From positions 6,016,001 to 6,080,000 of the forward strand of contig OZ250169.1 of the NCBI GenBank assembly GCA_965237955.1: 64,000 nucleotides of DNA, given 5' to 3'. This stretch comes from Candidatus Marinacidobacterales bacterium. Lineage in GTDB: Bacteria; Acidobacteriota; Vicinamibacteria; Marinacidobacterales; SMYC01. Numbering within the stretch: the first letter of the stretch is position 1; the number at the start of each line of letters is the position of its first letter. The notes under the pieces were generated by a model, which saw only the letters and a list, made by a program, of their open reading frames with translations, had not been told where the DNA came from and made no database searches. The translations under genes were made by a program, and so were the position numbers. Below, one piece after another: positions 19,831-24,478 of this stretch.

Positions 19831-20404
19831 ATCGCGACTCACGCTAGGAGGGATGAACGCTCGCGGTCCCTTTTGTCTGCGCCTCCGGGCCGTGGGCTCG
19901 CGTCGCCCAGTGATGCCGAAAATACGTGACGACCGAAGATACGGCAGCCGCACTGGCCACCGCCACGGGGAGCTAGTCCCCTGTATCAGAACAAACTAGA
20001 TAAAGCAGAGCTTGCCGAAACCCTTCTAAGTGCATGAATCTTATGAATCTTATGGGCTGGCGAAAAGCCTAACTTTGTATAGTAATCAAAGATCCAGGGG
20101 ACTAGCTCGAACATCAATGCCGACATCATGACGAGAGTCGTGTTCAACCTTCGTACGCCTTCGAACTCATCAGTACATTCCCAAGTCGAATGTTACTGCA
20201 CCGATCTGCTGCCGTCCATCGGCGTCGTCAAGAGGCCGGTCCACCCGAAACCTGCGGCGATGGCGTGCTGCGTCCTCATCGGGTCGAACACCCCGAGCGC
20301 GACGAACGAACCAAGGGCGAACACCTCTAAGAGACGAGAGACGAGATTTTCCCCTGGAGGCCTCCCTGTTCGGAAGACTTTTTGCGGGACGGCGGGAGTG
20401 AAAA

Positions 20405-20543
20405 CGGAAAAAGGCGAGGCCGGAACACCCAACCACTAGAACACCGAATGTGTTCCGTTCCGGCCTCGCCTCTTCGCTCCGTTCCATATTGAAACGGGAC
20501 CCCCCTCGAGATCGGCCCGTTTCGAAACGGTTTGAACGAACGA
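20405..20543 (-). ncRNA. candidate small RNA, copy A
   Basis: Downstream of a sigma54 motif; hairpin GAAACGGG..CCCGTTTC, inner GAACAC-ATTCG-GTGTTC hairpin, terminator GGCGAGGCCGGAAC..GTTCCGGCCTCGCC-TTTTT; homologous to 21605-21731. Confidence 0.55.
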
Positions 20544-20553
20544 TGGAGAGTAG

Positions 20554-20570
20554 TGCAATCGCGATGCCAG
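20554..20570 (-). promoter_or_regulatory. sigma54 (-24/-12) promoter, copy A
   Basis: CTGGCATCGCGATTGCA, exact GG-N10-GC spacing. Confidence 0.7.
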
Positions 20571-20705
20571 ATCTGGCCGCCGGGCGCTCGATTGCACGTC
20601 CCTGAATTCAGGTCGACCGAGCGTCGCGTTCGAGCTCGCTTCCGGCACGCTGGTCGTAGAAATCTTCCACTATCGTCTACTCGAGGATGCCGCCGGGAAA
20701 TGTCG

Positions 20706-21329
20706 TCAACGACGAGTGGTGCGTGGTGGAGGATCCCGCTCGAGCGTCTGGCGACCAGCGTTCGTCTCATTGCTCGGGCTGGCGACGACCGACGCGCCCC
20801 AGCTTTGCATCATCGACCGGCGGTAGGGTTTCTGCTCGTAGCTCACCTTCACCATGTAGACTTTGCATTCCAGGTCGAAGAAGTTGCACGAGAACGCGAG
20901 CGCACTTCCCCATTGCCCGGCCCCGGTCTCCGTGGTCAGACGAGCGACGCCTTCCTGCTGGTTGTAATACGCCTGAGCCACCGCCGTGTTCGGCTTGTGA
21001 CTCCGGCGGCGCTCACACCTTCGTACTTGTAGTAGATGCGCGCAGGCGTCTCGAGAGCTTTCTCCAGACGTCTCGCACGGTACAACGGTGTCGGCCTCCA
21101 CTGGCGGTAGACATCGAGAACCGGACCGGGAACGTCGATGTAGCGTTCGGTCGAGACCTCCTGTTCGATGAGCGCCATCGGAAACAGAGGCGCGAGGTCG
21201 CTGGGACCAAGGGGCTCTCCCGTTCCTGGATTGAAGCATTGGCTTGACGGGGTCGGGGAGATCGGCCTGGATGTTGTACCAGGCCGTGGGAATATCTTTC
21301 TCAGTCAGCAAAAAATTCGTAGGTTCCAC
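20706..21329 (-). pseudogene. TrpB-like (TrpB2) PLP enzyme, 3'-truncated and frameshifted
   Basis: EKDIPTAWYNIQADLP, WRPTPLYRARRLEKAL, IYYKYEGVS, SHKPNTAVAQAYYN, TETGAGQWGSAL across frames; ends after about 200 codons. Confidence 0.85.
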
Positions 21330-21384
21330 GGCGACCTCCAGGCGTTTTGTTCCTTATAGTTCCGGACCGTGGATTTCGTAAGCG

Positions 21385-21510
21385 TTCTACGTTATATAGC
21401 TGCTTGCCGACGATGGCGCCGCGATAGTCGACGATCATTGAGTTGCCTCCTCCGGCGTCGATCGGTATTTCCTCTTCCGGATCGACCGCATTGTAAGGAT
21501 CGATCATGAT
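21385..21510 (-). pseudogene. nitrilase/carbon-nitrogen hydrolase-like fragment
   Basis: PIDAGGGNSMIVDYRGAIVG resembles the C-terminal G.SMIVD..G.I motif. Confidence 0.45.
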
Positions 21511-21604
21511 AGAAATCTCCGAGCTTTGCCGATTTAGAAAACGCGGCAGTCGAACTCAGAGAGAATGGGTAGGAAAAGCTGAGTCCCACCAGGACGGTGG
21601 AAAT

Positions 21605-21731
21605 GAAAAAGACGAGACCGGAGCTCCCAACCAACTGGAACACCGAATGTGTTCCGTTCCGGTCTCGCCTTTACCCTTTTGAAACGGGCCCCCTCGAAAT
21701 CGGCCCGTTTCGAAACGGATTTCCTGAACAG
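21605..21731 (-). ncRNA. candidate small RNA, copy B
   Basis: Same hairpin order as copy A, with a compensatory G-C to A-T pair in the terminator stem (GAGACCGG/CCGGTCTC) and a TTTTT tail. Confidence 0.55.
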
Positions 21732-21741
21732 CCGAGAGTAG

Positions 21742-21758
21742 TGCAATAGCGATGCCAG
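21742..21758 (-). promoter_or_regulatory. sigma54 (-24/-12) promoter, copy B
   Basis: CTGGCATCGCTATTGCA, exact GG-N10-GC spacing. Confidence 0.7.
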
Positions 21759-21889
21759 AACCGCACCGAGCGACTCCGTCTGGACGGGCTCGGCCACTCC
21801 TCCGCCGAGCGGCGGCGGATTTCGTCGATTGCGTTCAAAACGACACGAATCTCGGTCGGTGGATTGTCGACGCGCTGAATCATGACGAA

Positions 21890-22070: not shown

Positions 22071-23366
22071 CTAGTCTTCCGCATAGTCGGCCGGACTTCG
22101 GAGAGGAAGGCGGATCGTCACCGATGTGCCCCGGCCGGGCTCGCTTTCGACCTCGATACGCCCACCGTGGTCATCGACGATCTTGCGAGCGAGGAACAGG
22201 CCGAATCCCATTCTGACTCGTGATTCCTGCCGGAAAACGAAATCGAATATTTTCCTCACCACCTCCGGCGGCATCCCCGATCCCGTATCGGTGATTCTTA
22301 TCTCGATATCGCTCTTCATCATTTCCGTCGTGATTTTGATGCTCCCCTCGCCTTCGATCGCCTCGATGGCGTTTCGGACCACGTGCATGAACACCTGATT
22401 CATCTGAGCCGAGGCGCAATACAGTGGATCGATCGTGCCATATTCCCGCTCGACAGCGATGCGACTTCCGATCTTCGATTGCAGTAATGCCAGCGCACTC
22501 TCGATCCCCACGTGCACATCGACGGTCTGATAGGTGGCCTGGTCGACACCTGCGAAGCTCATCAAACTGCCGACGATCGTTTCCACGCGATCCGTCGCGG
22601 TGGTGATGGCTTTCGTGGAATCGGAAATGATGTCGAGCACAGCGTCGAGTCCATTCCCCTGCGCGGTTTCTTCGGACACGGTCGCCTTCAGCTTCTTTGC
22701 CGCCTTGAGCACCGTGTCATGCCCAGCGGTGAGCGCACCCAGTGGTGTATTCAGCTCGTGCGCCACGCCCGCTACGAGATTGCCGAGTGACGCCATCCTC
22801 TCTTGCACGAGCATCCGGCACTCCAGCGCCCTCATCTTTTCGGTGTAGCGAAGTCTCTCCTCCATTTCATTTTTGAGCTCTTGCTCCATCTGCATCTGTC
22901 GCATCTTGCCCGAGAACAGATGGGATGCCAGCGAGAGGAACTTCACATCGAGCGCGTTGAAATCGTGGGCCGTCCCGTAGATGAGCACGCTTTGTGTCCG
23001 GTCATGAGCGAACTGGGGACAAACGTACACGCGGGCCACCGATAGTCCCTGAAAGGCCGATGGCAAAGTCGGACGGATCGTGGCAAGTGCGTCGCCTTCG
23101 TAGACGTGCGAGCCCGGTATGTCCAGGATCGCGGGCTCGACATCTCGATCCACTCGAGAAATCGCGGCCTGCCCGCGCTCTCCGTCCACGACCATTCCCG
23201 AGTCCAGGTACCGCCAGCACAGGACATCGCCGATGTACTTCAGCTTCCGGGCGAAGATCTCGGCGGTGGCATCCACGCCGCTCGAGCGATTAAGCTCGTC
23301 GGATAATTCGACGAGCGATTCATAACGGGCTAATCTCGAGAGCTCCTGAAGCGCGGTCATCGGCAC
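22071..23366 (-). CDS. sensor histidine kinase (NtrB-like, cytoplasmic GAF-like N-terminus)
   Basis: ERMASLGNLVAGVAHELNTPLG H-box, NQVFMHVVRNAIEA N-box, DTGSGM G1, GFGL G2, ESEPGRGT. Confidence 0.9.
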   Translation of the reverse strand: MPMTALQELSRLARYESLVELSDELNRSSGVDATAEIFARKLKYIGDVLCWRYLDSGMVVDGERGQAAISRVDRDVEPAILDIPGSHVYEGDALATIRPTLPSAFQGLSVARVYVCPQFAHDRTQSVLIYGTAHDFNALDVKFLSLASHLFSGKMRQMQMEQELKNEMEERLRYTEKMRALECRMLVQERMASLGNLVAGVAHELNTPLGALTAGHDTVLKAAKKLKATVSEETAQGNGLDAVLDIISDSTKAITTATDRVETIVGSLMSFAGVDQATYQTVDVHVGIESALALLQSKIGSRIAVEREYGTIDPLYCASAQMNQVFMHVVRNAIEAIEGEGSIKITTEMMKSDIEIRITDTGSGMPPEVVRKIFDFVFRQESRVRMGFGLFLARKIVDDHGGRIEVESEPGRGTSVTIRLPLRSPADYAED

Positions 23367-23884
23367 TCACCTCCTCGGATGGTGGAAAAGGACGTTCCGG
23401 TGGGATGTCGTAGATGGCGACGATCGTGTTCATCATGACGGCGAAGTCAGCCAGGGCCATCAACTCGTCGATTTCCCACTCCCCGTAGCCCTCGTCCTGC
23501 AGGTCCCGTCACGATCTCGATGGCGACCCAGTAAGATCGCGGCAGTGCTCGAGCGCCTCGCCCTCGGTCAAGCGCATCAGATCCTCGCAGGTGAGGGTTT
23601 TGCAGCTCGAGCGCGGCATGGCCATGGAGAGCAGTGCAGTAGTGGTTGCCCGCGCGAACGGAAATGTTGAAAAGAACGAGCTGCTTGAGCAGCATGGGCA
23701 CGTCGCCGGCGAGCACCGCGTATCTGAGCTTGCCCCACGTGGCTCGAAGAACGTTCTCGTTCACACCGAGCGCTTTGAGAAAGTTCGGGACATCGGGCGC
23801 ACCGGAGACCTTTTTCACTTCGTCGTAGATCGCCCGCACTTGCGGCGATGCCTCGGCATATTCAACAACGCTTCGACGTTTCAT
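23320..23884 (-). pseudogene. carboxymuconolactone decarboxylase/AhpD-family protein, frameshifted with internal deletion
   Basis: EASPQVRAIYDEV..VPNFLKALG..LKQLV..S..NHYCTALH; tail DLQDEGYGEWEIDELMALADFAVMMN lies in another frame and overlaps the kinase start. Confidence 0.7.
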
Positions 23885-23945
23885 GATCGAGCTCCCAGAA
23901 AGGAGAGGCGCAGGCCCGACCGGGACCTGCGCCCTCGTTGAATTC

Positions 23946-24478
23946 CTACTTCTTTCTAAACCGGCTGTCGATGGGAACATGATGTGAGCGTACGGTGTGT
24001 CGGGCCACATGACCCAAGGACCTCCGTTGCGGTGGTCGGTGGACATGTTCTTCAACAGGCTGTGGTCCGGCACGACGATCATCATGTGGGCGTGTAAGTC
24101 AGTGACCCAGTCCTCGGGACCGGTGGCCTCGGTGGCATAGGGGTCCTTGTTACTGACAGGTGTATCGCCGGCCAACATGTAGGCGAAACCCATCTCTGTG
24201 TAGCTCGGCTCCGTCTTGTTGATGTAGGCGTCCAGAAAGTTCATCCACGGCTCGTTGACGCACCAAGGATCGACGCCCGGCGTGTCCGGCCGGTCGGGCA
24301 GACAGGTCCATCCATTGCTGCCTTCGCGAAGCGTGTTCATGTTCCAGTCCTTGATGGTGGCATTGGCAGCGATGGAATCGGGTCCCGCGCTCATCGCGCT
24401 TTCGATGGACTCCTCGTTCGTAGCTGTCAATGCGGTGGCAGACACGAGGGCACAAATTCCGAGAGTGACGATCTTCAT
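23946..24478 (-). CDS. secreted conserved hypothetical protein (3' frameshift)
   Basis: Signal peptide; AMSAGP, LREGSNGWTCLP, YMLAGD..SNKDPYA, GGPWVMWPDTPYAHIM; natural end IDSRFRKK* reached with a 1-nt shift. Confidence 0.7.

Follow-up and report, generated by a model that had tools for sequence, protein, structure and literature searches.

A family of probable sigma54-promoted structured RNAs in the acidobacterial order Candidatus Marinacidobacterales

The window considered here is a stretch of 64,000 nucleotides (nt) from the genome of a Candidatus Marinacidobacterales bacterium (assembly GCA_965237955.1, contig OZ250169.1, positions 6,016,001 to 6,080,000). Its non-coding DNA holds two diverged copies, A and B, of a unit that begins with a sigma54 promoter motif and ends in a terminator-like stem. 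An earlier note on this DNA had proposed that the two represent an unannotated family of sigma54-promoted structured RNAs. That proposal is supported: the family is real and undescribed, and its members are units of about 125-170 nt with covarying stems. The pattern of sequence change makes it likely that the units are selected as non-coding RNA, presumably transcribed from the promoter motif, and very probably they are functional RNAs acting in trans. As to how they act, we assign a probability of about 0.5 to the reading that they are small RNAs (sRNAs) that, assisted by Hfq, pair through a G/U-rich seed with C/A-rich leaders of messenger RNAs (mRNAs) and lower their translation.

The two copies and the family they define

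The two copies are indeed diverged repeats, with 80.1% identity across 166 nt (BLASTN, E 1.9e-36). The aligned span is 20407-20571 (A) and 21605-21759 (B). The units agree at 131/164 nt, their flanks at 34/60 and 19/40; their indels are of 1, 2 and 9 nt. In the 8.13-Mb genome, a single contig, BLASTN with both copies turns up no further close copy. Each is preceded on the minus strand by the exactly spaced -24/-12 motif that had been noticed there, TGGCA-N6-TTGCA (20554-20569 and 21742-21757). This strict motif occurs 33 times genome-wide; with its spacing altered by +1, +2 or -2 it occurs 3, 4 or 6 times, and by -1, 23 times.

The predicted minus-strand transcripts fold with z scores of -5.4 (A) and -4.4 (B), equalled by 0 of 200 shuffles. 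The plus strands, of course, score similarly, so folding by itself cannot assign a strand. The terminal stem of each copy ends with five U. The features of the copies (SL, stem-loop) are the following.

20554..20569, minus strand: copy A sigma54 -24/-12 motif (sequence)
20406..20543, minus strand: copy A predicted RNA, about 138 nt (fold; start placed by promoter spacing; conservation relative to locus L147)
20513..20529, minus strand: copy A internal dyad 1, also the 5' arm of SL2; possible activator site at about +16
20480..20496, minus strand: copy A second putative internal dyad, 33 bp beyond the first, which shares letters with the SL2 3' arm
20457..20470, minus strand: copy A 5' arm of SL3, the long terminator stem (family pairing)
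20439..20455, minus strand: copy A inner hairpin, the "core" of the earlier note (letters vary, pairing kept)
20428..20434, minus strand: copy A GGUUGGG in a one-sided bulge, a likely seed (conserved element)
20406..20426, minus strand: copy A 3' arm of SL3 and U-tract, resembling an intrinsic terminator
21742..21757, minus strand: copy B sigma54 -24/-12 motif (sequence)
21604..21731, minus strand: copy B predicted RNA, about 128 nt (fold; identity to copy A)
21701..21717, minus strand: copy B putative internal dyad 1, 5' arm of SL2
21670..21686, minus strand: copy B second putative internal dyad, 31 bp beyond the first
21658..21669, minus strand: copy B 5' arm of SL3 (family pairing)
21638..21654, minus strand: copy B inner hairpin (family pairing)
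21626..21632, minus strand: copy B GGUUGGG bulge motif (sequence)
21604..21622, minus strand: copy B 3' arm of SL3 and U-tract (sequence, fold)

A plain DNA similarity search of 40 relatives returned no match, so detection of the family required covariance models. The model built from A and B, as had been recommended, found homologues in 6 of 18 related genomes, all 18 of them from the same family, and one more copy, a diverged one, in the genome under study. From such homologues, a common layout emerges for the short subtype: an optional SL1 (absent in A and B), SL2, SL3 and a U-rich tail. SL3 has a 12-bp outer stem leading to an inner hairpin, and a bulge of 7-10 nt, on the 3' side only, that holds GGUUGGG.

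Across 48 distinct sequences, the paired fraction of alignment cells is 96.8% in the outer stem, 88.6% in the inner hairpin and 70.0% in SL2. Both sides change in 6 of the 12 outer pairs and in 5 of the 6 inner ones. Overall, in this alignment, which was fitted to the covariance model, 84.1% of cells are paired and the covariation score is 0.374, where shuffling gives 0.195 and sliding the partners never more than 0.150. When 30 terminator domains from all subtypes are aligned with MAFFT, without fitting to the model, 91.2% of cells are paired, and 10 of 15 pairs change on both sides. The stem pair reported to co-vary between A and B does change from G-C to A-U, and among the 48 it is G-C in 26, A-U in 17 and G-U in 5. 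In the outer stem, G-U pairs outnumber A-C (25 versus 5), and this fixes the strand. At least six T follow within 11 nt of the stem in 39 of the 48 short copies.

The unpaired GGUUGGG is kept while nearly all other letters change. It lies inside one of the segments first described as diverged linkers. Conversely, the 23-nt stretch first described as a near-invariant core is identical in the close copies A and B only; family-wide, it is the variable inner hairpin. As a family signature this stretch was rejected: even with as many as 3 mismatches tolerated, just 1 of 18 relatives had a match, by chance and inside coding sequence, and viral contigs had none.

An orthologue of copy A in a metagenome locus (L147) shares 154 of 164 nt with it (94%). 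The gene next to that orthologue keeps 50 of its 73 four-fold sites (68%), and the flanks about half. This, in turn, means that purifying selection acts from promoter to terminator.

Two pattern searches bear on the promoter and the bulge. The first left the promoter out, using two stem arms and GGTTGGG against a species-level genome collection. It gave 55 matches: 13 in Acidobacteriota (5 known beforehand, 8 new) and 42 elsewhere. A sigma54 motif lies 96-132 nt upstream of 13/13 of the former and 0/42 of the latter; since the promoter was absent from the pattern, this counts for a sigma54-driven family. The second was blind to the bulge, using promoter and left arm without GGTTGGG against 401 genomes of the class. 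A complementary right arm is present in 23 of its 35 matches, and GGTTGGG in 21 of those 23, three being new; the two arm-bearing matches that do not carry it are both outside the order. A metagenome scan gave 49 matches, and in 31 of them the right arm and the final G, neither of which was in the pattern, were present.

A model of the terminator domain finds the family in 15/17 and 5/6 genomes of two families of Ca. Marinacidobacterales, with 1-7 matches per positive genome, and in 0/27 genomes of the order's third family and 0/100 of other families in the class, although, with 30 candidates scored per genome, weak copies may be missed. The family is thus present in 20/23 sampled relatives, all in two families of this order of the Vicinamibacteria, versus 0/127 other members of the class. 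Spread beyond the order was rejected: a pattern for a long subtype picked up 13 of the 400 other phylum members searched, a yield close to that of the control, and 0/13 fold into the motif. Also dropped were a coding locus (L003), a plain hairpin (L137) and, as false or broken, L018, L169, the 42 non-acidobacterial matches and 18 of the 49 metagenome matches. A short copy in genome G018 is interrupted within SL3 by about 1.5 kb of inserted DNA (L131/L212, G018:C1:9399842-9401522), and the terminator-domain model finds no intact copy in that genome.

Rfam does not know the family. Over the window copies, Rfam 15 gives as best match a microRNA hairpin at 24.5 bits, where the cut-off is 60; ten homologous loci give tRNAs only, and 14 long, sigma70-type and other loci give nothing over the units. 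A search of the literature on sRNAs of Acidobacteria and Marinacidobacterales, on sigma54 sRNAs and on GGUUGGG found no prior description; this covered few subscription journals and no supplements. Large motif-discovery tables could hold the family under another name.

Subtypes, surroundings and candidate activators

The covariance model matches this genome five times, and a structural descriptor adds a sixth copy (4537434+); a further copy (2504883-) is doubtful. Three are short sigma54 copies, one is a long sigma54 copy (2707573+) and two are sigma70-like. The long copy belongs to a highly conserved type with conserved upstream boxes, which usually lies between an O-antigen-ligase-like gene (a resemblance by eye) and a convergent gene. 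The sigma70-type copies have a TTGAC-N17-TANNNT promoter and a 5' motif of their own. The bulge is kept in all subtypes; it reads TGTTGGG in some sigma70-type copies, and in the long subtype AGTTGGG once and GGTCGGG once.

The sigma70-type 5' motif, CAGYY-AAAA-GGCGAT...GGCCAMGGCTG, forms a hairpin with an internal loop, for which Rfam gave no match in the scanned loci. It is seen in L443, L446, L458, L462, L470, L471, L473, L474 and L476. The inner hairpin of these copies has two sub-forms.

In 23 of 52 loci a short copy and a tRNA-Met(CAT) gene stand head-to-head, and this is probably the ancestral site of the short copies. Where a copy lies close before a gene, it might be suspected of being a cis-acting leader or attenuator of that gene; copy A in L147, for example, ends about 45 nt before a co-directional gene. 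However, of 25 loci, 12 have the downstream gene on the opposite strand and 9 have it co-directional; 1 has none, 3 are too short to judge, and the gene varies by locus. The long subtype, wherever seen, faces a convergent gene. This orientation and the variable neighbours argue against a cis-acting leader, which is very unlikely. The units are independent of neighbouring genes.

The surroundings in the window raise a different suspicion. Copies A and B lie among gene remnants, their contexts vary, and a miniature inverted-repeat transposable element (MITE) is located between copy A and the next gene (19972-20106; 135 bp, with terminal inverted repeats and CTAG ends). That MITE has 116 copies in the genome with a mean identity of 98% and looks active. 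The units might then be a mobile repeat, like a MITE or a repetitive extragenic palindrome, or a decaying duplication without function. The earlier note had named a repeat of this type as what might overturn its proposal. The units, however, are few, diverged and without terminal repeats, they are conserved far above neutral, and their promoter and covariation are kept across two families. The mobile-repeat reading is thereby largely refuted and scarcely credible.

The remnants themselves were said to be ruined genes for trpB2, a nitrilase and a kinase. One of these is confirmed:

20706..21329, minus strand: broken, truncated TrpB-like (trpB2) gene between the copies, given as context (partial matches to NCBIfam PRK12391/TIGR01415)

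Its TrpB-like matches fall in two reading frames and stop at around position 200 of a profile of 441. Neither the nitrilase remnant nor the kinase remnant has a match in Pfam or NCBIfam, and their labels reflect resemblance by eye. The frame breaks in neighbouring genes could be assembly errors. At 23447-24478 and in its neighbours, several open reading frames (ORFs) read as fusions of unrelated frames; such fusions near the units suggest uncorrected single-base indels in the assembly, and the ruined appearance of the region may be partly technical.

Transcription from sigma54 promoters requires an activator, mostly bound upstream, according to PMC3162934. The host genome does have rpoN. An NtrB-like kinase at 22071-23366 had been proposed as a link to the units. 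It has no tblastn match in 52 homologous loci, and none of the genome's 22 matches to sigma54 activators lies in the window; the link is therefore unsupported. Further, the short copies share no upstream motif, and their similarity stops at about -26.

A candidate site stands instead inside the unit. The dyad YGTTCC-N5-GGAACR is present in 17 of 22 short representatives (<80% identity); five representatives of one subgroup have no clear dyad. It starts 41-42 bp (7) or 51-52 bp (10) after the promoter TGGC and never in between, at +16 or +27, that is, one helical turn apart. A second dyad mostly follows 31-35 bp beyond the first. NtrC sites, for comparison, have a 32-bp spacing. At 10.5 bp, the phase concentration is 0.97 for promoter to dyad, against 0.40 and 0.33 for two downstream segments. 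Such phased dyads are possible activator sites within the gene; binding of FleQ downstream of an RpoN site is known, by a title cited in PMC8528422.

Several points call for caution. The split between 41 and 52 may stem from a single deletion of SL1, the weights of the half-sites were set by eye on the same sequences, and the letters of the dyad also form SL2, with real compensatory changes. Among 45 sigma54-like motifs, the dyad matrix matches downstream of the three short copies only, and the genome as a whole shows no excess of tandem dyads spaced by 31-33 bp. A LexA box was rejected as an identity for the dyad: it does not precede recA, and a gap of 5 is no commoner genome-wide than gaps of 2-9.

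For the long subtype, a likely activator can be named. A single-copy NtrC/AtoC-like regulator gene is carried by 15/18 and 6/8 genomes of the order's two RNA-bearing families and by 0/28 of the third. In 14 of 21 genomes it lies on the same contig as the long-subtype RNA and at most 40 kb from it; in 2 it is far away. A glycosyltransferase-rich island lies between the two. Judged from this linkage, the regulator is probably the activator of the long subtype. The flanking of a polysaccharide island by the RNA and a sigma54 regulator hints at control of the envelope or of biofilm. In the present genome (G000:C1:2679130-2679966, minus strand) the regulator gene has lost its N-terminal half and its leader and is joined to another gene, by rearrangement or by mis-assembly.

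A PilZ family with a private N-terminal domain (L238-L312, for example G000:C1:1646048, plus strand) has 2-5 members per genome. It occurs in 16/18 and 8/8 genomes of the two RNA-bearing families and in 0/28 of the third. The boxes upstream of one of its clades (GGGA-N3-TCCCAC-like) resemble those before the long RNA subtype, which hints that the two share a regulator.

Some other sites also carry a sigma54 motif. At G000:C1:1785689 (minus), near a sigma54 response regulator, and at 3499751 (minus), the motif precedes strongly paired non-coding DNA with terminator-like ends and without GGUUGGG; these are possibly other sigma54 sRNAs, and no copies of them are among the collected loci. L115:1528 (plus) and L116 (G011:C47:20127, G004:C158) have the motif and a long GC-rich hairpin that two genomes conserve, again without GGTTGGG, possibly a different RNA or a leader. 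L085:242 (plus; G132:C564) has the motif, a ribosome-binding site, a short Cys-rich ORF, which we take to look metallothionein-like, and a GC hairpin.

What the RNAs may do

The proposed mechanism runs as follows. Each stand-alone unit would be transcribed into a small RNA once a sigma54 enhancer-binding protein activates its promoter, possibly via the internal dyads in the short subtype; the long subtype would be switched on by the linked NtrC/AtoC-like regulator. The terminator stem would then expose the GGUUGGG bulge as a seed. This seed, likely with Hfq, would pair with C/A-rich mRNA leaders, giving less translation. The copies would feed different signals, through sigma54 activators and sigma70, into one shared target set, and pairing with the leader of the regulator would close a negative feedback loop.

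The rationale is that one short single-stranded motif, conserved amid otherwise free sequence, looks like a seed. Seeds have 6-8 bases according to PMC5568312, and silencing of ACA enhancers by pairing is described for GcvB in PMC3879156. Hfq is found in 18/18 and 8/8 genomes of the two RNA-bearing families (27/27 with this one) and in 0/28 of the family without the RNA, where rpoN is kept in 27/28.

One candidate target, weakly supported, is the leader of the linked regulator. In 20 of 21 orthologues it carries UUCCCCACACCC directly after TATAAT, followed by an A/C-rich stretch and GGAG. The bulge can pair with it as CCCCA(C)ACC if one extra base is allowed, and the bulge of copy A can pair over 8 bp with ACACCCAA. 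The resulting loop would recall the one from Qrr to luxO (PMC4211561), acting through a C/A-rich enhancer of the kind that GcvB targets have (PMC3879156). Since one half of the DNA box that precedes the long subtype looks like TCCCCAC, autoregulation could also explain the conservation of this leader.

Much, of course, weighs against pairing as the mode of action. The leader pairing needs a bulge or is of 5-8 bp. Its duplex energy is ordinary, with a median rank of 0.33 among 1,200 sampled leaders and 1 of 35 below 0.05, in a ranking that ignores accessibility. Covariation between RNA and leader was looked for and none was seen, and this genome is without the leader. CCCAACC occurs before start codons 16 times where 15.4 are expected (7,172 crude gene calls). 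The 185 pattern matches give 62 candidate ORFs, from 90 loci and this genome, with no recurrent protein family. PilZ genes were rejected as a target, matching in 3 of 5 paralogues here and in 2 of 68 orthologues elsewhere. Predicted folds leave the bulge open only in part (unpaired by 0.55-0.79 on average, and by more than 0.7 in 19 of 48), the stem sequence is conserved beyond the needs of pairing, several pairs being nearly invariant, and the long and sigma70-type copies often have poor U-tails. Finally, the co-occurrence with Hfq amounts to one loss event, in a reduced family that is also without RNA recognition motif (RRM) proteins (0/5).

Other target searches gave as little. In a pattern linked to the Shine-Dalgarno (SD) sequence, the seed complement ranks 6th of 21 7-mers of the same composition; a control with the reversed pattern (185 versus about 80 matches) is unfair because SD and ATG are reversed too. 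Ranking duplexes of the bulges against all leaders gave no common, coherent set. Pairing of the bulge with a tRNA 3' end, in the manner of a T-box, was rejected, as none of 55 ARAGORN tRNAs ends in CAACC(A).

This record of failed or weak target searches would be expected if the RNAs were protein decoys, with the stem-bulge junction and its GGUUGGG bound by an RRM protein, a second Hfq-like protein or a processing adaptor. The numerous copies, tandem ones included, would titrate that protein, much as GlmY does. Decoys would fit the SL3 letters that are conserved past pairing, the tandem SL3 modules behind one promoter in two genomes (L210; G017:C93) and the identical module behind sigma54 and sigma70-like promoters. 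This genome also has five RRM matches and a second Hfq-like gene, and RRM is not found in 5/5 genomes without the RNA. However, sponges of the CsrB/Rsm type carry many motifs, and nearly all copies here carry one motif per RNA. The short copies, moreover, have no linked gene for a candidate protein, and CsrA has no match in this 98%-complete genome. A decoy is thus possible, if doubtful. A sponge of the CsrB/RsmYZ type in particular was rejected, for CsrA is not matched and GGA loops are not conserved. The second, divergent Hfq-like gene (G000:C1:7684527-7684853, minus strand) lies beside an smpB-like gene, and almost every genome of the two RNA-bearing families gives a second, weak match to Hfq.

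Alternatively, the partner could itself be an sRNA with a C-rich, CCCAACC-like seed, for which the units would be sponges. A G-rich exposed motif without an mRNA target signal would fit a partner other than a leader. However, the complement is absent from this genome's 6S RNA and tRNA 3' ends, which are the RNAs checked, and the idea seems quite improbable. The units are not 6S RNA themselves: a canonical RF00013 gene lies elsewhere (57.1 bits), and the units fold into 2-3 separate stems, where 6S RNA is one long hairpin with a central bubble.

Being multi-copy, short and strongly terminated, the units also recall antitoxin RNAs or genes for small peptides, and in a crude scan of 54 units, short stretches resembling an ORF turn up on the sense strand of 22 and on the antisense strand of 25. 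This reading has very little likelihood. The family has no common ORF, indels between A and B are of 1, 2 and 9 nt, conservation tracks pairing rather than codons, and no neighbouring gene is shared.

Whichever mechanism applies, the family gives a handle on post-transcriptional control in an abundant, uncultured order of Acidobacteria. Its design differs from that of the known sibling sRNAs. The conserved single-stranded sequence is confined to a one-sided bulge of the terminator stem, and one module is placed under sigma54 or sigma70-like promoters, while the short subtype may hold an enhancer inside the gene. A 7-nt motif on a portable scaffold also makes for a cheap reporter test. One can go further and view the short subtype as a portable sigma54 cassette of 165 bp, whose activator binds internal dyads that also form an RNA hairpin, with the bulge of all subtypes serving as a seed whose targets include the mRNA of the RNA's own activator. 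This is rather unlikely, but were it true, the unit would retain its own regulation wherever copied.

Comparison with known small RNA systems

The family would act most like Qrr, Pxr and GlmY/GlmZ, yet belongs to none of them. The Qrr RNAs of Vibrio depend on sigma54 and on Hfq. According to PMC4211561, they too are multi-copy siblings at distant loci with a shared core, are activated by a response regulator (LuxO), and pair with their own regulator's mRNA. Unlike Qrr, whose core is a 32-nt stretch, the acidobacterial family has a core of 7 nt in a terminator bulge, has no Rfam match, shows no tie to quorum sensing and includes sigma70-type siblings.

Pxr, from Myxococcus and Cystobacter, likewise has a sigma54 promoter, three predicted stem-loops and a narrow lineage; it lies near the sigma54 response regulator nla19 and has tandem paralogues without one stem-loop (PMC5568312). 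The long subtype here is similarly linked to one regulator. The conserved parts of Pxr are SL1 and SL2, its SL3 being variable (PMC5684412); here, the reverse holds. Further, the phylum is another one, and Rfam makes no match.

In the enterobacterial GlmY/GlmZ, a laterally bulged stem serves as a protein site. These RNAs are also sigma54-dependent siblings, one of them a protein decoy, with overlapping control by sigma54 and sigma70. They differ from the present family, which has 1-7 copies, no Rfam match and no link to glmS that was seen.

GcvB has a long G/U-rich seed, a single copy and a sigma70 promoter. It supplies the model for the proposed mechanism, since it pairs with C/A-rich enhancers upstream of Shine-Dalgarno sequences (PMC3879156). 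It has no sequence relation to the acidobacterial family, and an enhancer-type target is, here, a proposal.

Two general marks of such systems are seen in the family. As for Hfq-dependent sRNAs, Hfq is present in the host and the 3' tail is U-rich, if weaker in the long and sigma70-type copies. As for sigma54-dependent sRNAs, the spaced motif recurs in homologues, before a stand-alone, intergenic, covarying unit with a terminator-like end.

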